Below are positions 8,639-60,960 of a stretch of DNA of 62,652 nt, piece after piece. A program made the translations under genes and the position numbers. Location: contig JACRNJ010000060.1 in NCBI GenBank assembly GCA_016219285.1, positions 1-62,652 of the forward strand, written 5' to 3'. The stretch comes from Deltaproteobacteria bacterium (lineage in GTDB: Bacteria > Desulfobacterota > GWC2-55-46 > UBA9637). The notes under the pieces are model-generated. The model was given only the letters and a program-made list of their open reading frames with translations, had not been told where the DNA came from and did no database searches. The first letter of the stretch is position 1. Every line of letters starts with the position of its first letter.

Positions 8639-8697
8639 ATTTACGATTTACGATTTGAGATTTTAAATCGTAATTCGTAAATCTAAAATCGTAAATC
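8639..8697. repeat. inverted heptamer array (TTTACGA)n/(TCGTAAA)n
   Basis: tttacga tttacga tttgaga ttttaaa tcgtaat tcgtaaa tctaaaa tcgtaaa; overlaps the M16 peptidase stop codon. Confidence 0.9.
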
Positions 8698-9936
8698 TTT
8701 TTCCTTTACCTTGCCAATCGCAGCAATGGTTATCTTCTCCGGATTAAAAACTTCGTTAGCCAACTTCATAATATCTTTTGCAGTTACCTTATCTATGCCG
8801 TTTACTATTTCTTTCACAGTAACCGTCCTTTTAAAATATATTTCGTCTCTTGCAAGTTTTGTCATCCTGCTCTCGCTTGTCTCAAGACCAAGCAGCATAC
8901 CCCCTTTGAGCTGTTCTTTTGCAGATTGGAGTTCTGCCTTAGGAACTTCCTTTTTTATAAATACATTGAGTTCTTTTAGAATCAATTCCACTACTTTGCA
9001 GAATGTATCAGGGGCAGTTCCGGCATACACCACAAGCGAGCCCACATCACTGCAAAGGTTTAAATAAGAGTATACAGAATAGGCAAGACCCCTCTTCTCT
9101 CTTATCTCTTGAAATAATCTGGAGCTCATACCTCCGCCCAACAAGGTGTTAAGAAGGTAAACCTTGTATCGGTCAGAATGCGCCTGATTAGGCGAAGGGA
9201 CGCCTAAACAGAGATGCACCTGTTCTAAATTTCTTTGTTCAAGAGCAGTTCCGGAATGCGAGATTGGAGATTTGAGATATTTGATTGGAGGTTTAAGGTC
9301 ATAATCAAGCATTTTCTCAAAAGGCTTCAAAAGCTTTAACAGCCTTTTGTGCTCTATATTTCCTGCGGCAGTGATAATAACAGCATGGGGCAGATAAGAC
9401 TGCTTGAAATATGAAACAATATCATCTCTTTTAATTGAGTTTATAGTCTGAAGAGTGCCAAGCACAGGCATCCCAAGAGGATGTCCTTTCCACAAGGTCA
9501 TTGCAAATATATCGTGGATTAAATCATCAGGTGTATCTTCAACCATCTTTATTTCCTGTAAAACCACCAGCCTTTCTTTTTCAAGTTCTTTTTTGTCAAA
9601 CTTTGAGTTCATGAATATATCTGATAAAAGGTCAACTGCAAGAGGTATATCTTTGCTCAACACCTTTGCATAAAAACATGTATTTTCCCTCCCTGTAAAT
9701 GCATTAAGCATGCCGCCCACAGATTCTATTTCCCGCGCAATATCAAGCGCAGTCCTCTTCTCCGTGCCTTTAAATAAAAGGTGCTCAATGAAATGGGATA
9801 TGCCGTTTTTTACTGTGCTCTCATGCTTTGAGCCGATATTTACCCATATACCAATAGAAGCCGATTGAATATCTGGCATCTCCTCGGTAATAATCTTTAA
9901 ACCGTTTTTTAGTTGGGTTTTATAAATCTTGGACAT
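8683..9936 (-). CDS. M16 (pitrilysin-family) zinc peptidase
   Basis: HFIEH (HXXEH) motif, NAFT, LGGGMSSRLFQEIRE; usual position downstream of pnp. Confidence 0.95.
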   Translation of the reverse strand: MSKIYKTQLKNGLKIITEEMPDIQSASIGIWVNIGSKHESTVKNGISHFIEHLLFKGTEKRTALDIAREIESVGGMLNAFTGRENTCFYAKVLSKDIPLAVDLLSDIFMNSKFDKKELEKERLVVLQEIKMVEDTPDDLIHDIFAMTLWKGHPLGMPVLGTLQTINSIKRDDIVSYFKQSYLPHAVIITAAGNIEHKRLLKLLKPFEKMLDYDLKPPIKYLKSPISHSGTALEQRNLEQVHLCLGVPSPNQAHSDRYKVYLLNTLLGGGMSSRLFQEIREKRGLAYSVYSYLNLCSDVGSLVVYAGTAPDTFCKVVELILKELNVFIKKEVPKAELQSAKEQLKGGMLLGLETSESRMTKLARDEIYFKRTVTVKEIVNGIDKVTAKDIMKLANEVFNPEKITIAAIGKVKEKDLRF

Positions 9937-9959
9937 AATTGGTGGGAGGAAAGAAATAC

Positions 9960-10049
9960 CGTTGCCCGTGTCCGTTATCCGTGTCTGTGAGAAAATATAA
10001 AAAATCGGTCTTGATTTTCACAGTCACGGAACACGGTCACGATTCACGG
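9960..10049. repeat. inverted 6-7 nt array (CCGTGT)n/(TCACGG)n
   Basis: gcccgtgtccgttatccgtgtctgtga ... tcacagtcacggaacacggtcacgattcacgg; same unit at 36802-36873. Confidence 0.85.
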
Positions 10050-10053
10050 TTTC

Positions 10054-12147
10054 TTAACTTGTAACTGCCTTGCCAAGCGCCTCTTTCCTGGAAAGTCTTA
10101 TCTTCCCCTGTTTATCCACTTCCAAAACCTTTACAAGCACCTCGTCGCCTTCCTTTAGCACATCCTTGACATCTTTTACTCTTTCTTCAGACAATTGAGA
10201 TATGTGTATCAGGCCGTCTGTTCCTGGAAATATTTCTACGAATGCGCCGAAGTCCATAATCTTTCTTACCTTGCCAAGATAAATCTTTCCAACCTCCGCC
10301 TCCTGGGTAAGCTCCTTTACCATGGCAATTGCCTTTTGCGCCGCCTCATCGTCAGCAGAGGCAATATTTACCTTTCCTGAATCATCTATATCAATCTTGA
10401 CGCCGGTCTTTTCTATAATACCCTTGATATTCTTTCCACCGGGTCCTATAACATCCTTTATCTTCTCTTGCTTGACATAGATGGTAATAATCCTCGGCGC
10501 ATGTACAGAAAGCTCCGTCCTTGGAGACGATATAGCCTCTTTCATCTTTTTAAGGATATGGAGTCTGCCTTGTTTTGCCTGATATATTGCCTGCCTCAAA
10601 ATCTCTTTTGTCACGCCTGTTATCTTTATGTCCATCTGAAACGCAGTGATTCCGCTTTCTGTGCCGGCAACCTTAAAATCCATATCGCCAAGATGGTCTT
10701 CGTCGCCAAGTATGTCTGAAAGCACAGCAATATTTTCGCCTTCTTTAATCAAGCCCATTGCAATGCCGGCCACAGCGTCTTTTGTAGGAACACCGGCATC
10801 CATCAGGGATAGAGATGCGCCGCATACAGTTGCCATAGATGATGAACCGTTACTCTCCAATATGTCTGAGACAATCCGTATTGTGTAAGGAAACGCGTCA
10901 GCCTCCGGAAGAATCTTTGTTACAGCCCTTTCTGCCAGTGCGCCGTGGCCTACCTCTCTTCTGCCAGGCCCTCTCAGCATCTTCACCTCACCGACAGAGA
11001 ACGGCGGAAAGTTATAATGAAGCATGAAGGTTTTATACTCCCATCCCGATAGGGCATCTATCTTCTGTTCATCTTCTGATGTGCCGAGGGTTGTAACAAC
11101 CATTGCCTGGGTTTCACCTCTGGTAAACAGACCTGATCCATGGGTCCTTGGAAGCAATCCCACCTCGCATGTTATTGGTCTTATATCGGTTAGGCCTCTG
11201 CCGTCTATCCTTATATTTGTAGAAAGCACAGACTTCCTCAATATGTGGTATTTGAGGTCTTCAAATATCTTTGTTATCTCTCCCTCTCTGCCTTCGTAGG
11301 TGGATTTGAGCGCTTGTATCAGTTCTTTGGATATATCGGATAACCTCTGGTATCTGTCCTGTTTGGAGGGGATATTAAGCGCCTCTTTTATTTTAATATC
11401 AGCAAATGCCTTTACCTTTGCTGTCAATTCATTGTCTATGCTGACAGCAGGAACAGGCATCTTTGATTTTCCGATTTCCATGATTATCCTTTGCTGGAGT
11501 TTTATAACCTCCTGCATGGAATCATGGGCAAACATCATGGCATCAAGGAGTTCATCCTCTGACACCATCTTTGCGCCGCCTTCAACCATTATTATTTCAT
11601 CTTGGCTGCCGGCTACTATTAAATCAATATCGCTGCTTTCCTTTTGCTGCTTATATGCAGGGTTGCATATAAACTTTCCGTTTATCCTGCCCACCCGAAC
11701 GGCTGCTATCGGGCTATTAAACGGAATATCAGAAACCATAAGCGCGGTTGAGGCCCCGATCATTGCCGCTATCTCAGGGTCGTTTTCCGGATCGAGCGAA
11801 AGAACTGTGGCAATAATCTGTGTCTCGTTGAAATAACCCTCCGGGAAAAGAGGCCGAAGCGGCCTGTCTATCAGTCTGGAGCAGAGGACTTCTTTTTCGC
11901 TGGGTCTGCCTTCTCTCTTGAAAAACCCGCCAGGAATCTTTCCTGCTGCGTAGGTCATCTCCATATAGTTCACCGTCAGAGGAAGAAAATCTTTGCCTTC
12001 GCTTGCTTGTTTTGCCGCACAAGCAGTAACAAGAACTATTGTATCCCCGTATCTTACTACCGCTGAACCATTCGCCTGCTTGGCCATCTTTCCAATCTCT
12101 ATTGAAATTGGTCTGCCGCCAAAATCTATTTCATACCTCTTTGTCAT
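10054..12147 (-). CDS. pnp: polyribonucleotide nucleotidyltransferase
   Basis: [34 protein letters not shown] and S1 domains. Confidence 0.98.
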
Positions 12148-12167
12148 TTGGTTTTTTCTCTCCTATG

Positions 12168-12297
12168 AAAGTCAAAGGTCAAAAATCAAATATACGGGGT
12201 CAAGGATTCGAGGATTCAAGTAACGAGTGTTTTCCACTTGAATCCTCGACCCCTCGACCCATGGCCCATGGAACCCTTGATTTTGCCTTTTGCCTTT
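12168..12297. repeat. nested inverted heptamer/octamer arrays
   Basis: Outer (TCAAAAG-like)/(TTTTGCC) arms enclose inner (GGATTCGA)/(TCGACCCC) arms. Confidence 0.8.
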
Positions 12298-12564
12298 TTA
12301 TTTTCTTAAGCCTAATTTACCAATAATAGCCTTGTACCTGTTGATATCGTTTTTCTTCAGATACTCAAGCAGCCTTCTTCTTTGACTAACAAGCTTTAAG
12401 AGGCCTCTTCTGGAATGATGGTCATCCACATGCACCTTGAAATGTTCGGTCAAGTAGTTTACCCTCTCGCTTAACAAGGCAATCTGTACCTCTGGCGAAC
12501 CGGTATCTGCCTCTTTTCGCTTGAAGGTTTTTATAACCTCCTGTTTTCTTTCTTGTGTAAGCAT
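12298..12564 (-). CDS. rpsO: 30S ribosomal protein S15
   Basis: [27 protein letters not shown] 12564 with GGAGG RBS. Confidence 0.98.
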
Positions 12565-12595
12565 ACTCTTTTTACCTCCTTTTTTTAACAACATC

Positions 12596-12653
12596 GCGCA
12601 TAGCGACCCACCCCTTCCCCTCCAAGGAGGGGAAGGGGTGGGTCGCTATGCGC
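12596..12653. repeat. perfect 28-bp-arm palindrome (CCCCTCC..GGAGGGG family)
   Basis: GCGCATAGCGACCCACCCCTTCCCCTCC-AA-GGAGGGGAAGGGGTGGGTCGCTATGCGC. Confidence 0.95.
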
Positions 12654-12677
12654 TTCTTCTATTCGCTATTACTTGTT

Positions 12678-13622
12678 CTATTTAAATACCCTCTCCAGTT
12701 TAAAACCGCCACTGCCTTTATATCGGGCAAGGGCAATAATTTTTCCATTGCTGGTAAAGCTTACCATCTCATCGTCTCTAATGGAAGAAGAAAAGTCTAT
12801 TCCTTTAGAAAGGACAGCCGAGGAGGGTCTTACAGCCTTCCCTGCCAGCAGCGTTGGAAGAGGCGCTATGCCATCCATTATTCTGCCCGCTGATGTTGTA
12901 TCAACCTCTATATCATAGATATCTGCAAAAATTCTTTCAATGGAAATAATACTTTTTGCTGCAATATCCTCTTGAAAATTCCTGAGGCTGTCTATTGTAA
13001 TGCTCTGTTTCAGGGAAAACTGCCCGCTCTTTATCCTTCGCAAACTAACGATGTGTGCGCCGCATCCCAGTTTTCTTCCTATGTCAAAGGCAAGGCTTCT
13101 TATATATGTCCCTTTGGAACATACCACCCGAACAGTAACAAATGGAATGGTAATATCATTCACACATATGCTGTAAATCTCTATATCTCTGGGTCTTCTT
13201 TCTACCTCAACTCCCAACCTTGCAAGTTTGTAAAGAGAAATACCATTCATTTTTACCGCTGAAAACATTGGCGGCATCTGCTTTATTTTTCCTTTAAAGC
13301 TATCTATAACAGCAGTTACATTCTTTTTATCCAGAGATGCTGTATCGCATTTTGCCACCACACTGCCTGCGCTATCATAGGTGTCGGTCTCTTCCCCAAG
13401 CTTTATAACAGCGAGGTATTCCTTTTCCCCATCTTCTAAAAATCTGGCAAGCCTTGTAGCATTGTTTATGCAAAGAGGCAGGACACCGCTTGCAATAGGA
13501 TCAAGGGTGCCAATGTGCCCTACCTTTCTTGCCCTTAATATCCTTTTTACAATCATCACAATATCGTGTGATGTAGGCCCTGCCGGTTTATCTATAATCA
13601 AAATACCGTGCTGGCTATCCAT
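12678..13622 (-). CDS. truB: tRNA pseudouridine(55) synthase
   Basis: DKPAGPTSHD, GHIGTLDP, QMPPMFSAVK, CSKGTYIRSL. Confidence 0.96.
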   Translation of the reverse strand: MDSQHGILIIDKPAGPTSHDIVMIVKRILRARKVGHIGTLDPIASGVLPLCINNATRLARFLEDGEKEYLAVIKLGEETDTYDSAGSVVAKCDTASLDKKNVTAVIDSFKGKIKQMPPMFSAVKMNGISLYKLARLGVEVERRPRDIEIYSICVNDITIPFVTVRVVCSKGTYIRSLAFDIGRKLGCGAHIVSLRRIKSGQFSLKQSITIDSLRNFQEDIAAKSIISIERIFADIYDIEVDTTSAGRIMDGIAPLPTLLAGKAVRPSSAVLSKGIDFSSSIRDDEMVSFTSNGKIIALARYKGSGGFKLERVFK

Positions 13623-14595
13623 TTATCTTTCTTTCCGTCGCCTGTATTACCTTTTCCTTAACTTCCTGAAGGCTGCCTTTTATGTTGCACCCTGCAGCAT
13701 TCATGTGGCCGCCGCCGCCAAACTCCTGCGAAATATCAGCCACATCTATTCTGCCTTTAGACCTGAAGCTTATCTTATATTCACCAGGCCTTGCTTCTCT
13801 AAAAAGCACACCAACTTCAACTCCCTCAACAGTCCTCGCATAATTTACAAAACCGTCAACTATGTCCTTAGCTGCATTTACCTTATTCAACATATCAAGT
13901 GTAACAATCAAGGATGCCACCTTACCATCTCCTGTAACCTCTAATGTATTTAAGACTGAGGCAAGGAGTGTTAATTTGTTCAGAGGATTACTCTCATATA
14001 TCCTTTGAGATATATCCCACGGTTTTACTCCAAGCCCAACCATTTCTCCGGCAATCCTAAATGCCTTTGGAGTGCTGCTGCTGTATCTAAATGAGCCTGT
14101 GTCTGTCAGTATTGAAACATATATATCAGTTGCTATATCACTGGTTATCCCAACATTTATTTCCTTTAAAAGGTCATAGACCATCTCCCCGGCGGCACAG
14201 GCATCATCATCTATCACATTTATATCGCCAAAACAGTCATTTGTAGTATGATGGTCAATATTGATAAGCTTTCCTTTATTTTTAATCTTGTTAAAATCCT
14301 CGCCAAGCCTGTCTTTCTGTCCGCAGTCTACAACAAGAACAGCATCGTATATCTTGTCTTCATTTATCCTATTTACTACCTTATCTGCAAAAGGGAGGAA
14401 TTCAAAGACTTTGGGGACAGGGTCGTACAAATACGCGGTTACATCCTTGTTAAGTTCTTTCAATCCAATGGCAAGGGCAAGCGTTGAGCCTACAGCATCC
14501 CCTTCGGGGTTGACATGGGAAGATATTAGAAAGGTTTGCCCATTTTTTATTTCATTGATTACTTGCTCGAATTTGTTGCTCACATTTAATCTCAC
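13615..14595 (-). CDS. nrnA: DHH/DHHA1 phosphoesterase (bifunctional oligoribonuclease/PAP phosphatase)
   Basis: H-NPEGDAVGS, IDHH, DTGSF, GGGHMNAAG. Confidence 0.9.
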   Translation of the reverse strand: MRLNVSNKFEQVINEIKNGQTFLISSHVNPEGDAVGSTLALAIGLKELNKDVTAYLYDPVPKVFEFLPFADKVVNRINEDKIYDAVLVVDCGQKDRLGEDFNKIKNKGKLINIDHHTTNDCFGDINVIDDDACAAGEMVYDLLKEINVGITSDIATDIYVSILTDTGSFRYSSSTPKAFRIAGEMVGLGVKPWDISQRIYESNPLNKLTLLASVLNTLEVTGDGKVASLIVTLDMLNKVNAAKDIVDGFVNYARTVEGVEVGVLFREARPGEYKISFRSKGRIDVADISQEFGGGGHMNAAGCNIKGSLQEVKEKVIQATERKING

Positions 14596-14602
14596 ATGAA
14601 TA

Positions 14603-14730
14603 AATTTCTAATTTCTAAATCCTAATTCCTAATAAAATGTCAAAAAACATAAATTATAAATTGGGTTATCGGACACTTAGTTGGAAACATGTCCCCGAAG
14701 GCCTTCATCGGGGATTAGACATTAGGATTT
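14603..14730. repeat. inverted heptamer array containing a CCCCGA..TCGGGG hairpin (14692-14714)
   Basis: (ATTTCTA/ATCCTA) units ... (TTAGACA/TTAGGAT) units with TCCCCGAAGGCCTTCATCGGGGA inside. Confidence 0.75.
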
Positions 14731-14741
14731 AAAAATTGTAT

Positions 14742-15086
14742 TTAAGCGCCTTTAATCTCCTTGATAATAGTCTCTATGCGGCTGGCATATTCCAGTGAAT
14801 CGTCAAACTTGAATGTAAGCTCCGGCATGCATCTTAATTTAAGCCTTTTCCCAAGTTCTCTTTTGATATAGCCGCTTGCACTCTTAAACCCTTCCATGGT
14901 TTTTTCTTTGTCTTCACCGCTGCCAATCATGCTGAAATAGACCTTAGCCTGACGCAGATCTTTTGAAAGTATTACCTTTGTTATAGTAACAAAACCGACC
15001 CTGGGGTCATGAATCTCTCCGAAGAGCATTGTTGCAACCTCTTTCCTTATCTCTTCGCCAACTCTATCAGAACGGTTGTAAGTCAT
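14742..15086 (-). CDS. rbfA: ribosome-binding factor A
   Basis: RSDRVGEEI, DPRVGFVTIT, DLRQAKVY, LRCMPELTFKFD. Confidence 0.96.
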   Translation of the reverse strand: MTYNRSDRVGEEIRKEVATMLFGEIHDPRVGFVTITKVILSKDLRQAKVYFSMIGSGEDKEKTMEGFKSASGYIKRELGKRLKLRCMPELTFKFDDSLEYASRIETIIKEIKGA

Positions 15087-15091
15087 ATCTC

Positions 15092-15170
15092 AAGAAATCA
15101 GAAGCAAGATGCAAGATGCCATATAGAGAAGATGCTGTTTTTTTCTGGCTTCTTGCCTCTTGCTTCTTGC
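15092..15170. repeat. inverted heptamer array (GCAAGAT)/(TCTTGCT)
   Basis: agaagcaagatgcaagatgc ... tctggcttcttgcctcttgcttcttgc. Confidence 0.85.
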
Positions 15171-15172
15171 AA

Positions 15173-17542
15173 CTATAGCTTAGCTGCCACCTCTTCCATC
15201 TGGTAAGATTCTATAATATCGCCTACCTTAATATCGTTAAATCCTTCTATGGCAATTCCGCATTCATAACCCGATGCAACTTCTTTAACATCATCCTTGA
15301 ATCTCTTCAAAGAGGCCATCTTTCCATCATATATTACTACATTGTCCCTTATAAGTCTTACCCTGCTGCCCCTCGGTATTTTGCCTGCAACTACATAACA
15401 TCCAGCCACAGTTCCCACCTTTGAGACACGGAATGCCTCTCTTACCTCTGCCCGGCCCATGATATTTTCTTTTATGGTTGGCGCCAGCATGCCTTCCATA
15501 GCTTTTTTAATATCATCTATCAATTCGTATATGATGCTGTAAAGCCGTAAGTCCACACCCTCTTTTTCTGCAAGAGACTGAGCCTTTGGTTCAGGCCTTA
15601 CATTGAAGCCAACCACTATTGCATTGGATGCGGCGCCCAGCATCACATCGCCTTCTGTAATACCCCCCACTGCGCTGTGGATAATATTGACTTTTATAGC
15701 ATCTGTTGGAAGCTTATTTATTACCTCCTTTACCGCTTCTACAGAACCCTGAACATCGCCCTTTACAACAACGCCAAGTTCCTTAACCTCGCCCTGTTTA
15801 ATCTTTTCATATAGCTCTGCAAGGCTTATCTTTGCCGTCTTTTTAAGCTCCGCCTCCTGCTTCTTTTTAAACCGTATGCCGGCAATCTGTTTTGCAGTTA
15901 CCTCATCCCGTACAACAGCAAATACATCTCCCGCCTCGGGAACGCCGGAAAGCCCCAACACTTCTACTGGCATAGAGGGGCCGGCATATTCCACCTTTTT
16001 TCCCCAATCGTTTATCATTGCCCTGACCCTTCCTGAATGCGCCCCGCTTACAAATGCATCGCCTGTCCTCACAGTCCCCTCATGTATTAAAACTGTTGCA
16101 ACAGGCCCGCGGCCTTTATCAAGCTTTGCTTCAACAATAGCGCCCTTGCCAGGTTTCTTAGGATTTGCCTTCAATTCTAATACATCGGCCTGCAGAAGGA
16201 TAAGCTCCAGCAGCTCTTTTATGCCAATTCCCTTCTTTGCAGAGACCTCGGCAAATATTGTATCTCCACCCCATGCCTCCGCCACAAGCCCATATTCTGT
16301 CAATGCCTGCCTTATCTTATTAGGTTCAGCGCCAGGGATGTCAATCTTATTTATTGCAACAATTATGGGGACATTTGCAGCTTTGGCATGATTTACCGCC
16401 TCTATTGTCTGCGGCATAACTCCATCATCTGCCGCTACTACAAGCACTACTATATCAGTTACCTTTGCGCCTCTGGCCCTCATGGCTGTGAACGCTTCAT
16501 GACCTGGGGTGTCAAGAAATGTTATATCGCCCTTGTCAAGATGAACGTGGTAGGCGCCTATATGCTGAGTTATCCCTCCTGCCTCGCCAGCTGCAACATT
16601 TGTCTTCCTTATGGCATCAAGAAGGGAGGTCTTGCCGTGGTCAACATGACCCATAACAGTTACAACCGGAGGTCTTGTCTTCAATTCACCATCTACCTCT
16701 GAAATATCCTCAAGGAGCAATTCTTCCTGCGGGGCAATACTCTCCACCTCATATCCAAAATCATGGGCAACCAATGCGGCTGCATCTGCATCTATGAACT
16801 GGTTTATTGTAACCATTATACCGAGGTCCATAAGCTTTTTTATAATATCGCCGGCCTTTATGCCAAGCCTCTGAGAGATATCCCCCACACTTATGGCATC
16901 TGTTACTTTTATAACCCTCTTTGCCGCCTTTGGTGTCGTTATCTCGGTCTTCTTAAGCTCTCTCTCTCTCGGAGGCGGTTTAATTTTATTAAATTTTTCA
17001 AGCCTTTCAAATTTGCCTCTCTTGCCAAAAGTTCCTCTTTTTTCATACTGTTTCTTCTTTACAGGCCTTTCTGTAGAGACAATCTTTATTTCTGTTTTAA
17101 CATGTTTCTCTTTAGATATTTCTCTTGGTACTGCGCCTTCTGGGATAAAAGAAGCAGTTTGCGCCTCCTGTGAAGGAATTTGTTCTGCCTTAATTGGTTT
17201 GGCAGCCGATGCTTCTTTTCCTGCAATCACTGAGACATGCATTTCTCCCTTTTTCTTTGTCTTTGTTGGAGCAGGTTCTCTTACATGTTTCTCTGAGGAA
17301 ATAGTCTCAACAACTTTTTCCACTTTAGCAGTTTTTTTGAACTCCGCCTCTGCCTTAACCTCTGGCTTCTTTGCCGATTCCTTGAATTCACCGGCTTCCT
17401 TGGCAGTCTCTTTTTTCTCGGCCTCGCTAGGCTCTGCCGCCCTCCTTCTGATAACAGTAGGCTTTACCCGTTTTTCTTCTACTTTTTTACCTGCCTGCAC
17501 AGGCAGGTCAGTTTTTTCTTGCTCTTTCTTTTTATCTGGCAT
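15173..17542 (-). CDS. infB: translation initiation factor IF-2
   Basis: [28 protein letters not shown]. Confidence 0.98.
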
Positions 17543-17568
17543 TGTTTTTATATTAACCCCTTAATAAT

Positions 17569-17634
17569 AGTAAGCAGTATGGAGTAAGGAGTATGCATTA
17601 ACTGTTTACTGCCTACTGTTTACTGCTTACTGCT
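17569..17634. repeat. inverted heptamer array (AGTAAGC)/(TACTGCT)
   Basis: agtaagcagtatggagtaaggagta ... actgtttactgcctactgtttactgcttactgc; supplies the nusA stop. Confidence 0.85.
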
Positions 17635-18921
17635 TTCCTGTGCCGCTTCCAATACCTTTTCAGCCTTTTTCAAACCAATACCATCTATTGTGGAAAGCTT
17701 TTCTATCCCTGCATTCAACACATCTGATACTGTATTCAATCCGGCATTCTTAAGAACATCCCTTGTTTTCGGCCCAACACCGGGAAGAGATGATATGTCT
17801 TCGTCATCTGTCTTCCTTGGTTCCTCTTGTTTAGGTGTTTCTTCTGAAGCTCCAGCGCCTTCTATGCCTGCCTGTTCCATTGCAATCTTTTTTACCTCTG
17901 TCTCACTATGGATATCTATCTTCCACCCTGTGAGTTTTGCAGCCAGCCGGACATTTTGCCCTCTCTTGCCTATAGCCAGAGAAAGCTGGTCATCCGGCAC
18001 TATAACCTCCATGGAATGGTCTGTCTCATCCATAATAACTCTGACTATATGGGCAGGCAATAACGCATTGCATATAAATTTTGCAGGCTCGTCAGACCAC
18101 GCAACTATATCAATCTTCTCGCCTCGCAATTCCTGCACAACTGCCTGGACCCTTGAACCCTTAACACCAACACATGCGCCGACAGGGTCAACTGCCTGAT
18201 CATTCGACGATACGGATATCTTTGTCCTGTCTCCAGCCTCCCTCGCAACACCTTTTATATTGATAATACCTTCATATATTTCAGGCACCTCCATCTCAAA
18301 GAGCTTTGCTACCAAATTTGGATGTGTCCTTGAAAGTACAATCTGAGGCCCTTTTTGCACATTTCTGACATCTAATATGAATGTTCTGATCCTGTCACCC
18401 TGTCGGTAATTTTCTCTCTTAATCTGTTCTTCCTTTGGAAGAACCGCCTCAGCCCTTCCCATGTCTATAAGGATATCTCCTCTTTCAAATGTATGAACTA
18501 TCCCTGTTACAATTTCACCTCGTTTATTTGTATACTCATCATATACAATATTTCTTTCAGCCTCCCTCATCTTCTGAATAATAATCTGCTTCGCAGTTTG
18601 CGCAGCAATCCTGCCGAACTCGCTGGTGTCAAGTTTTATGCCAAGGCTGTCTCCGACAGCTGCCTCTGGGTCAAATTCATGCGCCTCTCCTATCGATATC
18701 TCCTTATCATGGTTTGAAATATGTTCAACAACTGTCTTAAATTGAAAAAGCTCTATCTCCCCTAATTCCTCATTAAAATGCGCCTCTATAACCTTATGTG
18801 GCCCATGTTTTTTTTCAGCCGCCTTGACCATAGCAGCTTCAAGGGCTTCTACAAGTATGGCTTTATCAAGCCCCTTATCCTTGCCAACCTGTTCAATTAC
18901 ATTATTAAGATTAAGTCCCAT
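17620..18921 (-). CDS. nusA: transcription termination/antitermination factor NusA
   Basis: FGRIAAQTAKQ, S1, KH domains (DPVGACVG, AIGKRGQNVRLA), C-terminal HhH. Confidence 0.98.
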   Translation of the reverse strand: MGLNLNNVIEQVGKDKGLDKAILVEALEAAMVKAAEKKHGPHKVIEAHFNEELGEIELFQFKTVVEHISNHDKEISIGEAHEFDPEAAVGDSLGIKLDTSEFGRIAAQTAKQIIIQKMREAERNIVYDEYTNKRGEIVTGIVHTFERGDILIDMGRAEAVLPKEEQIKRENYRQGDRIRTFILDVRNVQKGPQIVLSRTHPNLVAKLFEMEVPEIYEGIINIKGVAREAGDRTKISVSSNDQAVDPVGACVGVKGSRVQAVVQELRGEKIDIVAWSDEPAKFICNALLPAHIVRVIMDETDHSMEVIVPDDQLSLAIGKRGQNVRLAAKLTGWKIDIHSETEVKKIAMEQAGIEGAGASEETPKQEEPRKTDDEDISSLPGVGPKTRDVLKNAGLNTVSDVLNAGIEKLSTIDGIGLKKAEKVLEAAQESSKQ

Positions 18922-18939
18922 AAAAAACCTCCCACCCAA

Positions 18940-18993
18940 GATTTACGATTTTAGATTTGAGATTTTTAAATCGTAATTCGTAAATCATAAATC
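18940..18993. repeat. inverted heptamer array (TTTACGA)/(TCGTAAA)
   Basis: gatttacgattttagatttgagattttt aaatcgtaattcgtaaatcataaatc. Confidence 0.9.
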
Positions 18994-19456
18994 ATAATTG
19001 TATCTCCAGCCTTGCCTTATCAATATCGTTAAAGGGTATCTCCCATCTTTTGCCTTCGCTGTCTATCAAAAAAACCATGCCTTCTTTAAAATCATCCAGT
19101 ATTGCCAGAAAGTTTCTCCTGCCCAGTATCGGCTGTTTTGTCTTAATCTTTACCTTTCTGCCCTTATACCTTACGAAATCCTTTTCTCTCGTTAGGGCTC
19201 TGTCAAGGCCGGGAGAGGATACCTCAAGGGTATAACTATGGTGAATAATATCCTTTACTTCCAGTATAGTCCCAAGCTCAGCGCTAACATCACCGCAGTC
19301 GTCAACTGTTATCCCTTCCTGTTTATCTATAAAAAACCTAAGAACCCATCGCCCATGCTCCATTTTATATTCAATATCAACGAGCTCCATCCCTTTTTCC
19401 AGCAGAACAGGCTCTGCTAATTCCCTTACCTGCAATATTACATCTTCTACCTTCAA
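18992..19456 (-). CDS. rimP: ribosome maturation factor RimP
   Basis: GITVDDC, YTLEVSSPGLDR. TTG start at 19456 with GGAG RBS (the ORF-track start at 19507 lies in the leader hairpin). Confidence 0.95.
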   Translation of the reverse strand: MKVEDVILQVRELAEPVLLEKGMELVDIEYKMEHGRWVLRFFIDKQEGITVDDCGDVSAELGTILEVKDIIHHSYTLEVSSPGLDRALTREKDFVRYKGRKVKIKTKQPILGRRNFLAILDDFKEGMVFLIDSEGKRWEIPFNDIDKARLEIQL

Positions 19457-19485
19457 AATACACTCCAAAAACAATGCCCTTAAAT

Positions 19486-19512
19486 AAAAAAGCGGGCATA
19501 AGCCCACTTTTT
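19486..19512 (-). promoter_or_regulatory. rimP-leader hairpin
   Basis: AAAAGTGGGCTTATGCCCGCTTTTTT on the minus strand directly upstream of rimP, resembling the conserved GTGGG..CCCAC rimP leader. Confidence 0.7.
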
Positions 19513-19792
19513 AAAAAACATCAGTTAAGAAAACTATCATAAAAGTTTTTGTATTGCAAGTAAAAAGTTTATTTTTTGTTTTGTTATTTTATTTTGCAGA
19601 AGTTCATTGCTCATTTGTTTTTCAGTGTAGTTTTTCCATTACATTCTGGCTTATAGACCATCTTTACCCTTGCCTTTATTAACACTTATTGATATTTTTA
19701 AAATATTCTGACACATATATAAAAAATATATTGCGGCTAGCCTGAAATATCAGTTTGCCTCACAAAGTGAAACTCTCTCTGCTTTAGAAGAA

Positions 19793-21007: not shown

Positions 21008-21248
21008 ACATTGTTTTTTGGGGAAACCTGCAAGTCCTTGACAGACGTTTCACCTGTCAAGGGCAAGTTGCCTGCCAGACAACACACCCCTAAATCCCCT
21101 ATCGAGAGGGGACTAAAGGGGTGGGTTGTGAGGAGTAAAAATTGGCCGATAACGAAGTATGGCAGGCAAATCGACTGGCTCCACTTGCTGCGAAGCGATT
21201 GCAAGTGGAAGATGTAAAATAGCGAGTGTTTCAATCGCTATTTTACGG
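20997..21248 (+). repeat. MITE-like structured element, family A copy 2
   Basis: Same ends and CCTTGACAG hairpin as 1602-1817, plus inserted CCCCT..AGGGG and CCACTTGC..GCAAGTGG hairpins. Contains the deoB stop. Confidence 0.85.
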
Positions 21249-21362
21249 TAATCTGAATCTATTTTAAAAGTATCTATTAACGTGCCATATTGTCATTCCT
21301 GTAAAAATTGTTGATGCAAAAGCAGGGAAAGCACATCCATAGGGTGTTGAATTTACTGTTAC

Positions 21363-21974: not shown

Positions 21975-22020
21975 GTCTTCTCCTTTTCTTTGAAGTATGT
22001 ATACATTTTGCAGCATTTAA

Positions 22021-22196: not shown

Positions 22197-22198
22197 AG

Positions 22199-22663: not shown

Positions 22664-22682
22664 TTGAAATCCTATGAACAAC

Positions 22683-24211: not shown

Positions 24212-24233
24212 ATTTCTTTACTTGTTCCACAAG

Positions 24234-50979: not shown

Positions 50980-52352
<1,373 letters not shown>

Positions 52353-52353: not shown

Positions 52354-52425
52354 ACGATTTTAGATTGTAGATTTAAGATTTTAGATTTTTTAAAATCGTA
52401 AATCTTAATTCGTAAATTGTAAATC
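52354..52425. repeat. inverted heptamer array (TTTAGAT)/(ATCGTAA)
   Basis: acgattttagattgtagatttaagattttagatt ... aatcgtaaatcttaattcgtaaattgtaaatc. Confidence 0.9.
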
Positions 52426-52431: not shown

Positions 52432-52507
<76 letters not shown>

Positions 52508-53095: not shown

Positions 53096-53236
53096 GGTTT
53101 GCAGCCAGAATGACTGTTCTTATTGCGCTAGATGGCTTCTCTGGTTTTGGTTTTAAAATTTTGATTGGGCGGGACAAGGCGGCGCTGCATTTTGGGCAGT
53201 TTACGATGTTATAGTGGACGACAAAAATAAGTAGCT

Positions 53237-53338
53237 GTAGTTTGCCCAACCCAACCTTCTGTTGGGTGCCCCATGGGCGTATCCCCGCTTAAAGCCTGCG
53301 GGGACAAGTTTAAAACCGCCGATAAATCGGCAGACTAC
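53237..53338. repeat. REP doublet (GTAG..CTAC) with nested hairpins
   Basis: GTAGTTTGCCCA[ACCCAAC..GTTGGGT]..TGGGC[TCCCCGCTTAAAGCCTGCGGGGA]..GCCGATAAATCGGCAGACTAC. Confidence 0.8.
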
Positions 53339-53395
53339 AAATTTATGTCGCTGCCTATAGCAGGGAAGTTTGTCCCGCATTTTCTACAAAGCAAC

Positions 53396-55125: not shown

Positions 55126-55209
55126 ATTGCAAAATGAAAATTGTAAAGTGCAAATTGAAAACTTCTCTTAATTTTGCATTTTTCAATTTGCAATCTTCAA
55201 TCTTAAATT
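55126..55209. repeat. inverted heptamer array (AAATTGC)/(TTTGCAA)
   Basis: attgcaaaatgaaaattgtaaagtgcaaattg ... attttgcatttttcaatttgcaatcttcaatc. Confidence 0.85.
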
Positions 55210-56036
55210 CATTTCAACAAATCTATATATCCTTTCGCAGACCTTGCCATCTCGCTGTCAGGGGCAAGTTTTATAACCTCTTGAAATGCATTGAATGCCC
55301 CTTTTTTATCCTTTAGGTTTATCAAAACAAGACCAAGCCGGTAATGGGCGTCAACATAATTCGGCGCATTCTTTACCGCAAGCTCAAACATATCTGCGGC
55401 CTCTTTATCTCTGTTCATCTTCATATAGGTAAGACCAATATTGTTGTAGGCAACGATATATTTCGGATTGCTCTCTATTGCCTTTTTATAGCTTTCCTCT
55501 GCCTTTGCATAATCAGCCTTCTCATAAAAGGCGCGTCCCATGTTGAAATAGGCAAATTCCGGGGTAGTGTAAAAAATATCGGCGAGCGCAAGATTGGCTT
55601 CTGCTACGGCTAAATCCCACTCCTTTTTTTCAAGATAAACAGCTGCAAGATTTGTATGGGCATCAGAAAACTTCGGGTTTATCCTTGTAGCTTCTTTCAT
55701 ATGTTTTACTGCATCTTCATGCATGCCTTTAGCAAAATATGCCAGGCCAAGCGCATTGTGAAATGAGGCATCTTTGTGATATTTCTCCACAGCATTCGTC
55801 AACTCTTTCATAGCCGCAGTGATGTTCCCTTCATTAAGATGAACAACGCCAATCTTATAATGTATATCTGCATCGTCTTTTCGGCTTGCATCAGAGGCGG
55901 CGCAGCCGTAGAAGACAGCAAACAGCAAGATGCAAGATGCCACATGCAAGATGCAAGATTTTTTCTTGCTTCTTGATTCTAACCTCTGACTTCTAAATCC
56001 TGACTTCTGACTTCCGATTTCTGATTCCTGTATCAT
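55209..56036 (-). CDS. TPR lipoprotein (PilF/Tgl-like)
   Basis: Lipobox FYGC, serial TPRs, YTTPEFAYFNMG motif, adjacent to rodZ. Confidence 0.8.
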   Translation of the reverse strand: MIQESEIGSQKSGFRSQRLESRSKKKSCILHVASCILLFAVFYGCAASDASRKDDADIHYKIGVVHLNEGNITAAMKELTNAVEKYHKDASFHNALGLAYFAKGMHEDAVKHMKEATRINPKFSDAHTNLAAVYLEKKEWDLAVAEANLALADIFYTTPEFAYFNMGRAFYEKADYAKAEESYKKAIESNPKYIVAYNNIGLTYMKMNRDKEAADMFELAVKNAPNYVDAHYRLGLVLINLKDKKGAFNAFQEVIKLAPDSEMARSAKGYIDLLK

Positions 56037-56994: not shown

Positions 56995-57008
56995 AACCTC
57001 CCATGAAA

Positions 57009-57083
57009 GATTTACGATTGTAGATTTACGATTTCAGATTTTAAAGATTTTAAATCGTAATTCGTAAATCGTAAATCGTAATT
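57009..57083. repeat. inverted heptamer array (TTTACGA)/(TCGTAAA)
   Basis: gatttacgattgtagatttacgatttcagatttt ... aaatcgtaattcgtaaatcgtaaatcgtaatt. Confidence 0.9.
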
Positions 57084-58037: not shown

Positions 58038-58170
58038 ACCCTAATGTCTAATTTCCAATAAAATTTCCAATTACCAATTTCCAACCTCCCCCTGTCCCCC
58101 TCCAGAGGGGGGATAAAGGGGGAGGATATTTAGATTTTTATTAGAAATTAGGATTTAGAAATTAGGATTT
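58038..58170. repeat. inverted heptamer array with central CCTCCCCCT..AGGGGGAGG hairpin
   Basis: ctaatgtctaatttccaat..ccaattaccaatttcc [cctccccctgtccccctccagaggggggataaagggggagg] ..ttagaaattaggatttagaaattagg. Confidence 0.85.
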
Positions 58171-58175
58171 AATAT

Positions 58176-59489
58176 CTATGATTTCGGAGCTGTTCCCTTA
58201 AATATATACCAACTCTTTAAATAATCCAATGCCCTCTTAAGTTGGATGTCCTCAGTCTCTTCCTTTGCTTTTTCAGCCTTCTCCTCCACTTTTACTTTTT
58301 TTTCTAACTTCTCTGGTTTTTGAGTCTCTCCGCCCTCCGCCTCAAGATGTCTTTCCAGGTCCTTTTCCTTTATATGGTTTTTTGACACAACATCTTCAAC
58401 TATGATATCAGGCTCAATGCCTTTGGCCTGAATAGACCTGCCTGATGGCGTATAGTATTTAGACGTGGTAAGTTTTATGGCCGAACCATCGCTTAATGGG
58501 ATAATTGTCTGCACAGACCCCTTGCCGAATGTTTGCGCTCCCAGTATTACCGCCCTTTTATTATCCTGCAATGCTCCTGCTACAATCTCTGAGGCGCTTG
58601 CGCTTCCCCCATTAACCAAAACAATTATCATGTATGGAGGCTGAGTGCCTTCAGCCTTGGCTTCAAACCTCATATCCTGACCAGATGCCCTCCCTTTTGT
58701 GTATACAATCAGCCCCTCTTCCAAAAACTTATCTGCAATCTCCACAGCCTGCTGCAAAAGCCCGCCGGGATTATTCCTTAAATCCAGGACAAGCCCTTTC
58801 AGCTTTCCCTCCTTTGAACCAAGCTTATTCAATGCATCTTCAAGGTCATTTGCAGTTTTCTCCTGAAACTGCGAAATACGGAGATAACCAAACCCATCTT
58901 CAAGGGTCTTATACTTTACACTCTTTACCGCAATAATATCCCTTGTAAGTGTAAATTCCTGCGGATCCTTCCAACTCTCCCGAAGTATCCAGATAGTAAC
59001 CTTTGTACCCTTGACCCCACGCATAAGCTTTACAGCGTCATTTATGGTCATATCTTTTGTATATTTTTCGCCAATCTTCACTATCCTGTCCCCTGCCTTT
59101 ATTCCTGCCTTAAATGCAGGTGTATCCTCAATTGGGGCAACAACTGTCAGCATTCCATCTCTCATGCCTATCTCTATGCCAATACCACCGAAACTCCCCT
59201 TGGTTTCAACCTGCATCTCTTTATACTCTTCAGGGGGCATAAAAGATGAATGAGGGTCAAGCCCATGTAGCATGCCTTTTACTGCGCCGTAAATAAGATT
59301 CTTAGAATCTACTTCTTCAGCATAGTTATCCTGCACAATAGAAATAACATCTGTAAATATCCTTATATTTTCATATGCCTTAGGAAGTACAGCAGAAACC
59401 CTGTGATTTATTCCCCATAAAAAAATGCTTATTACTATTGCTATCCCAGTCAACGGAATAAGCCTATTCCCTTTAACCATTTTGAACAT
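58176..59489 (-). CDS. ctpA: S41 C-terminal processing protease
   Basis: LDPHS, PDZ GIGIEI, DLRNNPGG, SASASEI, TFGKGSVQ. Confidence 0.95.
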   Translation of the reverse strand: MFKMVKGNRLIPLTGIAIVISIFLWGINHRVSAVLPKAYENIRIFTDVISIVQDNYAEEVDSKNLIYGAVKGMLHGLDPHSSFMPPEEYKEMQVETKGSFGGIGIEIGMRDGMLTVVAPIEDTPAFKAGIKAGDRIVKIGEKYTKDMTINDAVKLMRGVKGTKVTIWILRESWKDPQEFTLTRDIIAVKSVKYKTLEDGFGYLRISQFQEKTANDLEDALNKLGSKEGKLKGLVLDLRNNPGGLLQQAVEIADKFLEEGLIVYTKGRASGQDMRFEAKAEGTQPPYMIIVLVNGGSASASEIVAGALQDNKRAVILGAQTFGKGSVQTIIPLSDGSAIKLTTSKYYTPSGRSIQAKGIEPDIIVEDVVSKNHIKEKDLERHLEAEGGETQKPEKLEKKVKVEEKAEKAKEETEDIQLKRALDYLKSWYIFKGTAPKS

Positions 59490-59546
59490 GATATTTGCTC
59501 CTCCTTATGAAGTCAATATGCAGTACGCAGTAATTGCCTACTGTCT

Positions 59547-59659
59547 AGTGATCAATAGAAATATCTAAATAAACAATTAAAAAGTAAAATGTGAATGACT
59601 CGTTGCTGTAATTTATTTTAATTTCAAGTTTACTGTTTAGACATTTCTATTTGATTACT
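59547..59659. repeat. MITE-like element with ~25-bp imperfect TIRs, inside a CTGCCTA-type heptamer array (59516-59686)
   Basis: AGTGATCAATAGAAATATCTAAATA ... TGTTTAGACATTTCTATTTGATTACT. Confidence 0.65.
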
Positions 59660-59682
59660 GTCTTCTGCATACTCCTTACTGC

Positions 59683-60960
59683 CTATTTTTTCGCTTCTGT
59701 ATAAGCCAACCAATTTAACGGGTCCAACGGGACACCCTTCTGTCTTACCTCAAAATATAAGTGCGGACCCTTTGTGGAGCCTGTATCACCTACAAGGGCA
59801 ACTATATCTCCTTTTCCCACACTGGAATCCACATCTTTAATAATTTTCGAAAGACGGGCCAACAGGGTAAAATAGCCGTCGCCGTGGTCTATAATCATAA
59901 CCTTTCCATAACCTCTGAACCATCCTGAATACGCCACCTTCCCCTTGTAAACAGACCTAACCTCAGTCCCAATATTAGCAGCTATCTCAATACCATTATT
60001 AAAAGTAATTGTGCGAAATTTAGGATGCTCTACCTTTCCATACATAGAAATAATTTTTCCTGCTACCGGCATAGGCAGACCGCCTCGCATAGCCGCAAAA
60101 CCAAAGGTATGATTCCCTAGAGCATTTTCTGCCATATCCTTTTTGAATTTGTCTAAAAAAGACTGGAGTTCTTTAGAGGCCCCCTCCATTTCCCGTATGG
60201 CAGCAAGCTGTATGTTCTTTTTCTTTTTTATGGCTGTCAAGATAGCTTGCTTTTTATCCTTTTCCTCTTTTATCTCTCCTTTTTTGTGTTCAACCTCATG
60301 CTTTAAGGAAAATACCTCTTCCTGAAATACTTTAAGCCTTTCCCTTTCTGCTTCTAAAAACGATTGATTCTCTTTATAATCCCTTAACAGGTCAACATCA
60401 TACTCTACTATCTTATTTATATATTTATATCTTCTGCCAAAATCATTAACAGAGTTGGATGAAACAAGCGACTGCATTATGCCGCCTTTATTCATCTTAT
60501 ACATGGCAACCAATCGTTGGTTCAAAAACCCTGCAAGCCTTTCACTCTCGCTCACCAATGTTGTAATACGGGCATCCACAACGTTCCTTTTTCCCTTTAG
60601 CTTAACAATATTATCTTCTATATCTGCCAACTCTTCCTCTTTTTTAAATCTTGCCTTATCAAGTCTTTCCAATTCCTCAAGGATATTATTCTCTTTTTTA
60701 ACATTATATTCTAAACTTTTCCTTTTTTCCACAATCTCTCTTTTAAGAGATTCCAGCTGCTTTTCTTTCTTTACAACCTCGCCCTTGGTTTTGGGTGGGT
60801 CGGCATGGGCAGAGACAGCGAACAGCAGGCAACAGGCAGTAAACAGTAGACAGTAGGCAGGAAGCAGTAAAAGGATTTGAGATTTACGATTTACGATTTT
60901 AGATTTTAAATTCGTAATTCGTAATTCGTAATTCGTAATTGCCTGTAGCCTCATCCTCAA
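59683..60960 (-). CDS. envC: murein hydrolase activator EnvC (coiled coil plus M23 domain)
   Basis: Long coiled coil; NNGIEI, GYGKVMIIDHG, HLYFEVR..DPLNWL; upstream of ctpA. Confidence 0.88.
   Translation of the reverse strand: MRMRLQAITNYELRITNLKSKIVNRKSQILLLLPAYCLLFTACCLLFAVSAHADPPKTKGEVVKKEKQLESLKREIVEKRKSLEYNVKKENNILEELERLDKARFKKEEELADIEDNIVKLKGKRNVVDARITTLVSESERLAGFLNQRLVAMYKMNKGGIMQSLVSSNSVNDFGRRYKYINKIVEYDVDLLRDYKENQSFLEAERERLKVFQEEVFSLKHEVEHKKGEIKEEKDKKQAILTAIKKKKNIQLAAIREMEGASKELQSFLDKFKKDMAENALGNHTFGFAAMRGGLPMPVAGKIISMYGKVEHPKFRTITFNNGIEIAANIGTEVRSVYKGKVAYSGWFRGYGKVMIIDHGDGYFTLLARLSKIIKDVDSSVGKGDIVALVGDTGSTKGPHLYFEVRQKGVPLDPLNWLAYTEAKK

Follow-up and report, generated by a model that had tools for sequence, protein, structure and literature searches.

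Arrays of tandem heptamers that face each other as inverted pairs are on record from two bacterial genera. According to the main text of Rehm et al. (2015; PMC4692102), Xanthomonas carries (GGGANTN)n heptamers in 70–75 convergent inverted pairs, with one array per strand. Most of these arrays have about four units, in which some positions are conserved and others are free; about 90 % are intergenic, near the end of the upstream open reading frame (ORF) and mainly between co-directional genes, and array length and presence vary among related species. The same text noted that heptameric repeats had not been treated in detail in the literature at that time, and cited the idea that heptamers reflect a polymerase footprint. 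In Geobacter metallireducens, multicopy hepta- and octanucleotide arrays are 'mostly found in pairs', with four or five tandem units (GGACCGG, MTYCTGA, GTTGCTYN) on opposite strands at tens of loci, and the main text of Aklujkar et al. (2009; PMC2700814) interpreted them as global-regulator sites or regulatory RNAs. Here, we describe short inverted tandem arrays at the gene junctions of a 62,652 nt contig of a Deltaproteobacteria bacterium (JACRNJ010000060.1; the whole contig is referred to as the window). With a probability of roughly 0.55, we regard the window arrays as ORF-less members of a class of hairpin elements that resemble the intervening sequences (IVSs) of 23S rRNA genes, probably forming RNase III-type stems in operon transcripts.

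An IVS of the 23S rRNA consists of a terminal inverted-repeat stem enclosing an ORF of the four-helix-bundle (4HB) type, with ORF-less forms in other bacteria. Ralph and McClelland reportedly described an IVS with an S23p ORF in the 23S rRNA of Leptospira in 1993. In the sections of Warrier et al. (2016; PMC4990558) that deal with the Coxiella element, RNase III cuts the 28 bp stem of a 23S IVS bearing an S23p ORF, and heptamers of the sequence GACAGAT, in two to three strain-variable copies, lie upstream of that ORF; a pentameric crystal structure of S23p and old mobile-element hypotheses are cited there as well. Further 4HB-type genes have been placed inside cas loci (18 genes, in the relevant part of Zhang 2013) and, in a study of the candidate phyla radiation, in 16S and 23S insertions, and a 2023 paper reported a structural likeness of a 4HB protein to Avd. 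Published accounts of the inverted heptamer-pair architecture exist for a few taxa (Xanthomonas and Geobacter, with heptamers also in the Coxiella IVS), and a preliminary description of the window went too far in calling its arrays undescribed. No publication tying the 4HB/S23p family to heptamer arrays in general was found in a search of openly accessible main texts, and no link to 4HB genes is mentioned in the relevant sections of Rehm et al. (2015). The association between arrays and 4HB genes set out below is probably previously unreported.

The window is contig C55 of a 2.28 Mb genome assembly (84 contigs, 42 % G+C). Tandem Repeats Finder (TRF) gave 88 rows for the window, with period 7 in 43 and period 14 in 13 by a hand count of the table. 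There are 34 inverted repeat pairs with members no more than 150 nt apart, and the 25 displayed mostly correspond to the sites of the preliminary description, which had listed 25 start positions and claimed an array of tandem units followed by its reverse complement at more than 25 junctions, with a conserved period of mostly 7 nt and units differing by locus. A site was classed as clear if a 5′ arm of period 6–8 had a reverse-complement partner with a score of at least 10. By this rule 19 of the 25 sites are clear, two are borderline (12168 and 55920, each with a score of 9.5, the former nested when inspected by eye) and four are weak (24234, 29297, 48447 and 54128). Its account of the architecture, of the period and of units specific to each locus was therefore borne out, whereas the count was somewhat generous, since an unbiased detector applied to the whole genome picks up 15 window loci.

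The abundance of the arrays is far above chance. Period 7 accounts for 1051 of the 2501 TRF rows of the genome but for 69 of the 499 rows obtained from a copy made with a third-order Markov model. Strict inverted pairs of consensus units number 136 (122 loci) and direct pairs 11, with none of either kind in the Markov control; a looser rule that accepts an inverted partner within 200 nt retains 336 of 1562 arrays, compared with 5 of 254 in the control. In five dinucleotide-preserving shuffles, a bipartite array was present in 0–1 intergenic regions, as opposed to 209 of the 1550 real ones, and intergenic rows of period 7, 14 or 21 numbered 10–16, as opposed to 779. A frequency no higher than in shuffled intergenic DNA, which the preliminary description had named as the result that would speak against it, is not what these counts show. 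Nor are the arrays an assembly artefact, because the window stretch is present in contigs from four DNA sequencing runs of one study and separately assembled relatives share the architecture. Contigs of the four runs break off at arrays, and all four runs show a joint that skips positions 14638–14703 and may derive from other copies of the same family.

In the genome as a whole, 312 merged array loci were found. The arrays are DNA palindromes that follow a stop codon and precede the next ribosome-binding site, for the most part within operons. Co-directional junctions carry 223 of the loci (of 1719 such junctions), compared with 15 of 227 convergent and 13 of 223 divergent junctions, a co-directional enrichment with an odds ratio of 2.2 (223/1719 against 28/450, P=3×10⁻⁵); a further 56 loci lie inside crude ORFs, many of which have over-extended starts. 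The 5′ arm begins at a median of 6 nt past the upstream stop, and 47 of the 223 co-directional loci overlap the end of the upstream ORF, as had been noted correctly for the M16 peptidase gene, nusA and rimP. The 3′ arm ends at a median of 14 nt ahead of the next start. Arms span 2.1–4.6 units (10th–90th percentile), and the median loop is 18 nt long (90th percentile, 80 nt). Outside the window, arrays stand between the genes for ribosomal proteins L14, L18 and S13 and around ruvC.

In these respects the arrays resemble the pairs described in the main texts on Xanthomonas and Geobacter: tandem units of about 7 nt are followed by their reverse complement, and inverted pairs far outnumber direct ones. 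As in Xanthomonas, they are intergenic, lie at the upstream 3′ end and separate co-directional genes; the Geobacter arrays, from a related phylum, share the paired tandem units on opposite strands. The order of the arms is also alike, with the G-rich arm first on each strand in Xanthomonas and, in the present genome, more G than C in the 5′ arm at 204 loci and less at 70 (P=2×10⁻¹⁶). Members of one unit family almost always share the same order (59/60, 22/22, 16/17 and 12/12). In contrast to the single G-rich family of Xanthomonas, read there as a G-quadruplex former, this genome has 112 unit families, which are mostly AT-rich and have no G-quadruplex potential. The largest comprises about 60–81 of 307 loci, and the units show a conserved core with two to three variable positions each.

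Comparison with the IVSs rests on the stems. Like those of IVSs (at least 20 bp), the arms of the 19 clear window sites form predicted inverted-repeat stems, 15–34 nt in length and 76–95 % complementary, and the window array arms have predicted folding energies (ΔG) of −11 to −50 kcal/mol. Folding energies of the sense and antisense strands are equal because palindromes read alike on both strands, and are hence uninformative. The window elements differ from IVSs, which occupy rRNA helices 9, 25 or 45, in lying between protein genes and in having no ORF. Excision by RNase III has been shown experimentally for IVSs; for the window elements such processing is a prediction. At the gathering threshold, Rfam matched one tRNA only. 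We also considered whether the 5′ arm supplies stop codons in all three frames; this was rejected, as such stops occur in 33 of the 5′ arms compared with 67 of the 3′ arms.

The S23p/4HB ORF that IVS loops may contain is missing from the window, where a hidden Markov model (HMM) of 35 4HB proteins detected no such gene, but array loops do contain it at other sites of this genome, as well as in further genomes. There are about nine PF05635 matches in the genome, of the class TIGR02436 'four helix bundle protein', and by eye five to six of the seven intact genes are enclosed in loops whose arms are inverted arrays. The gene at C61:39270–39632, for example, has 17 AGAAGCA-type units upstream and nine complementary units downstream. 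By a strict rule, two of the seven 4HB genes are array-flanked, compared with 9 of 1641 other small genes; in 28 other genomes the same rule gave 14 of 28 4HB genes and one of 34 neighbouring ORFs (P=1.5×10⁻⁵), and inspection by eye about 20 of 30. The ORF-bearing form of the class thus has a 4HB gene in its loop, which is also the architecture of the classical helix-45 23S IVS. The preliminary description had guessed that 4HB or 23S_rRNA_IVP-like genes were the cargo of such arms and had proposed a search for filled alleles, and in both respects it was well founded: 4HB genes stand between such arms here and in many genomes, and the C61 gene is present in this genome (G000), G001 and G006, with differing unit numbers, whereas G002 has neither the gene nor the 5′ arm and retains a remnant of the 3′ arm. 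Elsewhere on contig C61, a broken 4HB gene (G000:C61:31026–31625; two frames, internal stops) has a full palindrome of (GAACATG)n and (CATGCTTC)n on each side, with arrays of up to 11 units.

The association extends to plasmids. A tblastn search with one 4HB protein against 72,556 plasmids matched 46 records, nearly all of them cyanobacterial (Nostoc 22, Calothrix 4). Twelve records were inspected: in seven the arrays around the gene are inverted, in two they are direct on both sides and in three they are one-sided. Inverted arrays surround the gene in Nostoc punctiforme, Leptolyngbya, Geminocystis, Euhalothece and Azospirillum lipoferum, and also among cas genes in Anabaena sp. 90 (cas6/cas4) and Picosynechococcus (cmr2/cmr3). 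Direct arrays on both sides were seen in Oscillatoria PCC 7112 (L158) and Pseudanabaena galeata (L164), the array upstream of the 4HB gene having 16 AAAAGCT units and the downstream one 12 AAAAGCC units. From a reading of its flanks, we take the A. lipoferum gene to occupy the helix-45 IVS site of a 23S rRNA gene carried on the plasmid, where heptamer-array stems enclose the ORF as in an IVS. The present assembly contains no 23S rRNA gene.

The 4HB proteins scored at most 41.9 bits against the Avd model, for which the cut-off is 80, and the genome encodes a single reverse transcriptase, a group II intron protein, on another contig. These two results do not fit a diversity-generating retroelement, with an Avd-type protein next to its reverse transcriptase and template/variable repeats, and the reverse transcriptase association raised in the preliminary description was not supported.

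Co-occurrence of arrays and 4HB genes across genomes, a check that the preliminary description had proposed, was examined in two samples. The first covered 50 genomes at their nusA neighbourhoods, and these neighbourhoods themselves contain no 4HB gene; with the HMM used for the window, 80 nusA neighbourhoods likewise yielded none, bar one weak match in L061. Period-7 density at nusA was correlated with the 4HB count of the genome (Spearman 0.53, or 0.60 per Mb), and remained so at 0.46–0.48 after removal of the relatives L001–L007; for other repeat periods the value was −0.09. With Y1 transposases taken as a control for mobile genes, the partial correlation with 4HB genes given Y1 was 0.46 (P=7×10⁻⁴) and that with Y1 given 4HB genes −0.04, so that Y1 transposases do not track the arrays and the suggested HUH association was not upheld. 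For the second sample, 40 genomes were drawn from the phylum according to whether they have 4HB genes (20 positive, 20 free). Here, period-7 density per 10 kb was 0.41, 0.73 and 1.74 for genomes with 0, 1–3 and at least 9 4HB matches (Spearman 0.30, P=0.06), and bipartite arrays at the nusA locus were present in 8 of the 20 positive and none of the 20 4HB-free genomes (P=0.003). None of 11 sampled genomes of the same class (families f3–f7, ten of them 4HB-free) had arrays at this locus, and the pervasive arrays of the present genome are a lineage-specific expansion. A 4HB gene may be necessary for arrays, but is not sufficient, given the scarcity of arrays at this locus in many 4HB-rich genomes.

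The arrays of the window are listed below with their junctions.

8639–8697, M16 peptidase gene to response regulator gene: bipartite, unit GATTTAC and then its complement; overlaps the M16 stop codon.
8645–8663 and 8679–8697, arms of the array at 8639: 95 % complementary.
9960–10050, pnp to M16 peptidase gene: bipartite, units of 6 and 7 nt alternating (CGTGTC and CGTTATC).
9967–9993 and 10015–10041, arms of the array at 9960: 81 % complementary.
12168–12298, rpsO to pnp: nested palindrome, outer arms of AAAGTCA type (score 9.5), inner arms of GGATTCGA type.
14603–14737, rbfA to nrnA: bipartite, loop of 80 nt.
15092–15170, infB to rbfA: bipartite, AAGATGC type.
17569–17641, nusA to infB: bipartite, AGCAGTA type; overlaps the nusA stop codon.
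18939–18997, rimP to nusA: bipartite, GATTTAC family; the first unit continues the 3′ end of rimP.
25617–25764, radical SAM gene to ThiF gene: bipartite, loop of 61 nt, AAATTTC type with C>G in the 5′ arm.
26587–26662, ThiF gene to JAB/Mec gene: bipartite.
27118–27187, JAB/Mec gene to pyridoxal phosphate (PLP) enzyme gene: bipartite, 6 nt units AGGTTA.
36802–36875, aminotransferase gene to DAHP synthase gene: bipartite, units of 6 and 7 nt (CGTGTC and CGTTGTC).
39074–39168, pheA to accA: bipartite, GATTTAC family, 14 nt double units; near-copy at C72:24773.
40192–40317, accA to dnaE: bipartite, loop of 76 nt, CAAATTN type.
50980–51067, in an operon on the plus strand: bipartite, 8 nt units (GAAACGGA).
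52354–52425, immediately upstream of a tRNA gene (52432–52504): bipartite, GATTTTA type.
55126–55209: bipartite, ATTGAAA and ATTGCAA types.
55925–56024: two heptamer arrays, GCAAGAT and then TTCTGAC, only partly complementary; borderline (score 9.5).
57007–57081: bipartite, GATTTAC family; near-identical copies at C41:660 and C72:5534.
58038–58171: bipartite, AATTTCC type, with a GC-rich inner hairpin within a 72 nt loop.
59516–59671: nested palindrome, outer arms of GCAGTA-type heptamers, inner arms AT-rich and 37 nt long.
60873–60940, junction of genes for 509 and 425 amino acids: bipartite, GATTTAC family.

The genes at these arrays are ordinary (rimP-nusA-infB-rbfA-nrnA-truB-rpsO-pnp-M16, ThiF, JAB/Mec, cmk, aroA, pheA, accA, dnaE and ppc). 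The idea that the arrays mark inserted cassettes does not fit, as the genes between them are conserved housekeeping genes in conserved order, and the small array-flanked ORFs of the window encode RbfA and a JAB/Mec protein and are not cargo.

Turnover of the arrays was followed at orthologous junctions in seven relatives (L001–L007), uncultured groundwater 'Deltaproteobacteria' or Thermodesulfobacteriota whose NusA is 78–92 % identical. The rimP-nusA junction shows five different units and is empty in L002 and L007. Between nusA and infB, AGCAGTA/AGCAGTG units occur in the window and L002 and a different unit in L001; L004 has none, L003 a short trace and L005–L007 non-array sequence. At rpsO-pnp, the window and L001 differ at 1 of 150 bases, L004, L006 and L007 have different units and L003 is empty, and at truB-rpsO the relatives carry a different unit or an empty junction. 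The arrays thus appear, change unit, expand, contract and vanish on the time scale that separates genera, and the expectation that they would be pervasive and fast-evolving rather than fixed was right. By contrast, the assertion that conserved geometry with free sequence is not expected from slippage was too strong: copy number varies in relatives, and the units at rimP and nusA look as if they were seeded from the 3′ end of their own gene. The rimP gene ends in ...ATTATGA and is followed by TTTATGA/TTTACGA units in the window (AATTAGG units in L005), and nusA ends in ...AGCAGTGA, followed by AGCAGTA units.

Two junctions bear on insertion and loss. The rbfA and nrnA genes overlap without a spacer in L003, L004, L006 and L007; in the window and L001 they are separated by a palindrome that is flanked by a 10–16 nt duplication of the overlap region. 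Between infB and rbfA, a putative DUF503/YlxP-like gene of about 95 amino acids lies between two palindromes in L001, L004, L006 and L007 and is missing in the window and L002. The window palindrome at this junction (15087–15172) starts like the upstream palindrome of L001 and continues like the downstream one, and from this chimeric structure the gene appears to have been lost through recombination between its flanking arrays.

All-against-all comparison of 307 loci gave 12 clusters (107 loci in total), including one 81-locus family of GATTTAC type, and about 200 singletons. By the yardstick of MITEs, the miniature inverted-repeat transposable elements, there are seven groups of near-identical copies (at least 95 % identical over at least 90 % of their length, at unrelated junctions) and one duplication-flanked insertion; most loci are singletons without defined ends. 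Near-identical dispersed copies alongside singletons indicate that copy-paste spread and growth in place both occur. At truB-rpsO we also observed a perfect GC-rich palindrome (12596–12653, arms of 28 nt) of a family distinct from the heptamer arrays; L001 has just the small palindrome GCGCTATGCGC there, and in the window a perfect palindrome of about 47 nt is inserted at its centre.

Other intergenic repeats were compared as well. Repetitive extragenic palindromic (REP) sequences and bacterial interspersed mosaic elements lie inside operons, close to stop codons, and are, like the window arrays, imperfect palindromes outside genes, short in length and high in copy number. In REPs the sequence is conserved, bears a GTAG/CGTC tag and has a cognate REP-associated tyrosine transposase (RAYT), whereas the window arms are periodic, with units that are free in sequence and tagless, and show no Y1 correlation. 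Three Y1 (IS200/RAYT-like) genes of the genome (C71:24094–24636, C75:53856–54398 and C57:28112–28822) have inverted palindromes of their own, two of them with a GTAG tag, and these GTAG palindromes are a separate REP-like system. The short tandemly repeated repetitive (STRR) sequences of cyanobacteria, as in the Calothrix report, are intergenic tandem heptamers too, but unlike the window arrays they are described as few fixed units in direct arrays; no account that gives STRRs a bipartite palindromic form or connects them with 4HB genes was found in the literature searched, and on plasmids of Nostoc, Anabaena, Leptolyngbya, Geminocystis and Euhalothece heptamer arrays flank 4HB genes. The TAACTGA repeats of Beggiatoaceae, cyanobacteria and Bacteroidetes, whose spread is patchy, are described in the relevant sections of MacGregor (2015; PMC4679880) as intergenic arrays of two to six units near gene ends, with CspB binding one heptamer per protein. 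They differ from the window arrays in being a single fixed unit in direct orientation (one inverted set in 170), just upstream of start codons.

We favour the reading in which the window arrays are ORF-less elements of the IVS-like class, in agreement with the RNA-processing hairpins that the preliminary description had considered. On this reading, the arrays would be co-transcribed with their operon and fold into imperfect stems of 20–35 bp that, by analogy with IVS stems, may act as RNase III-type substrates or as insulators; such properties would explain how insertions are tolerated both in rRNA and in essential operons. The arms may grow by slippage of 7 nt (and 14 nt), at times seeded from the local gene end, and the second arm might be made or kept through copying or hairpin selection. 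More speculatively, the pentameric 4HB protein could bind or promote the arrays. Several results weigh against this reading as a whole. The NusA tree provides only five independent pairs (three concordant, none opposite, two ties; P about 0.25, underpowered), arrays at the nusA locus are few in most genomes rich in 4HB genes, and contrasts within families f6, f9, f14, f20, f21 and f32, at 4HB counts of 1–3, showed no difference. About nine 4HB genes stand against about 200 singletons among the 307 loci, and a scan of 64 loops (each at least 45 nt long) with the HMM built from 35 4HB proteins revealed no remnants, which also tells against the earlier idea that window-type loops are emptied cargo sites. 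No 7 nt copy-number variants were seen in the contigs of the four runs, although contigs drop rare variants, and the runs carrying the window stretch are DNA runs, with no RNA run among them. In the stems, G–U pairs were not in excess over A–C mismatches (120 vs 94, P=0.09), so that selection at the RNA level is not demonstrated, and other mismatches occupy 646 of 5292 stem positions. Unit sequence was independent of 4HB protein similarity (rho −0.02, 276 pairs), which counts against a sequence-specific role of the 4HB protein.

A more ambitious version would make the 4HB protein the trans-acting partner of a widespread, hitherto unrecognized selfish hairpin class, in which the pentamer reads one heptamer per subunit and promotes the formation, expansion or spread of arrays, so that STRRs, the Xanthomonas and Geobacter pairs, 23S IVSs and the window arrays would be one system that shares a single protein cofactor. 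Such reading by the pentamer would account for arm lengths that reach about five units, but we offer this version only tentatively and consider it doubtful. It also seems unlikely, if not greatly so, that the arrays are a pure mutational by-product of slippage, to which heptamers would be the unit most prone in the replicative polymerase, and of intrastrand template switching that perfects quasi-palindromes, without function, in whose loops 4HB genes merely land or survive. Such an origin would suit the units that look seeded from local gene ends, the copy numbers that vary between relatives, the frequent 14 nt double-unit duplications, the lack of a wobble signature, the independence of unit and 4HB protein and the polymerase-footprint idea cited in the main text of Rehm et al. 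(2015). As a universal polymerase property, however, it leaves unexplained why 20 4HB-free genomes of the same phylum, including 11 from the same class, have no bipartite array at the nusA locus, and it accounts neither for the fixed arm order (59/60 and 22/22 within families, 204 vs 70 overall) nor for near-identical copies at unrelated junctions. Those copies, namely the 81-locus family and the seven groups at least 95 % identical, would be expected of non-autonomous MITE- or REP-like elements moved in trans by a transposase (RAYT or other) encoded elsewhere, as would the duplication flanking the insertion that splits rbfA from nrnA, the perfect palindrome set into the centre of a smaller one at truB-rpsO and the eight Y1_Tnp matches of the genome. 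We nevertheless judge mobilization of this kind improbable: Y1 counts do not track arrays once 4HB genes are allowed for, the Y1 genes have GTAG-type palindromes of their own at their flanks rather than heptamer arrays, about 200 of the 307 loci are singletons with private units, and the elements have no defined ends and no regular target duplications.

Arrays of binding sites for a global regulator, a nucleoid protein or cold-shock proteins covering about 7 nt would match the periodicity and the conserved core with its variable positions, the regulator-site interpretation in the main text on Geobacter (Aklujkar et al., 2009) and the heptamer binding of CspB in the sections cited from MacGregor (2015). 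The existence of 112 unit families is incompatible with one sequence-specific site, units are freely replaced at orthologous junctions and arrays are rarer at divergent, promoter-bearing junctions (13/223), all of which makes this proposal quite improbable. There is still less to be said for intrinsic terminators or attenuators between genes, although hairpins directly past stop codons might suggest them: none of 21 terminator-like sites in positions 8000–27999 coincides with an array (17.5±4.2 expected), the stems are AT-rich with no U-tract on the sense strand, and convergent junctions (15/227) are less often arrayed than operon interiors, so that we rate the possibility as very slight. Integron-like recombination sites, analogues of attC marking mobile cassettes, would likewise combine conserved geometry with free sequence, but attC sites are not known to be periodic, and rimP, nusA, infB, rbfA, truB, rpsO, pnp and the genes for ribosomal proteins and RuvC keep their order across relatives; we find this explanation barely credible.

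Heptamer arrays also occur in frame inside coding sequences of the window, at 42926–42965 in dnaE, 45295–45328 and 46338–46370 in ppc, 29990–30022 at the start of cmk, and 61593–61623. The DnaE array lies between the PHP and polymerase domains and is translated as VKSEIRNPKSEIT, and an array in phosphoenolpyruvate (PEP) carboxylase is translated as SEQLTVNSEQS. The window contains other repeat elements as well. A structured multicopy element of about 200 nt (1620–1831, 21008–21362 and 47087–47247, and also on C76 after 29581) has a predicted ΔG of −68 to −126 kcal/mol and shared blocks, among them one GTAAAATAGCGA...TCGCTATTTTAC hairpin; a copy of the element is directly 3′ of a 4HB gene, and no Rfam family matched at threshold. 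Two more hairpin repeat families, CTACAG...GCCGATTTATCGGCG and TTGTAACTCAAGGCTTTAGC, are found at 22017–22198, 22682–22783, 35561–35768 and 53096–53395, and at 22709–22764 and 45339–45393, with high depth and many alternative joints in the run contigs.

To our knowledge, bacterial heptamer repeats have been on record since 1990 and have gone unexplained, and we know of no function for the S23p/4HB family, although its structure has been solved. The nesting of 4HB genes in arrays across four phyla and the co-distribution of the two across genomes mean that a single experiment could address both problems, by asking whether the protein binds, stabilizes or generates the arrays. The present genome is unusual in how diverse its units are and in how densely arrays occupy its core operons. 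There is also a testable, probably unreported link to the 4HB/IVS protein family. For annotation, arrays account for odd C-terminal extensions, artificially long ORF starts and contig breaks, and recombination between arrays that flank a gene is a route to gene loss. Our results suggest that the IVSs of 23S rRNA may be just the rRNA-resident members of a far larger intergenic population.

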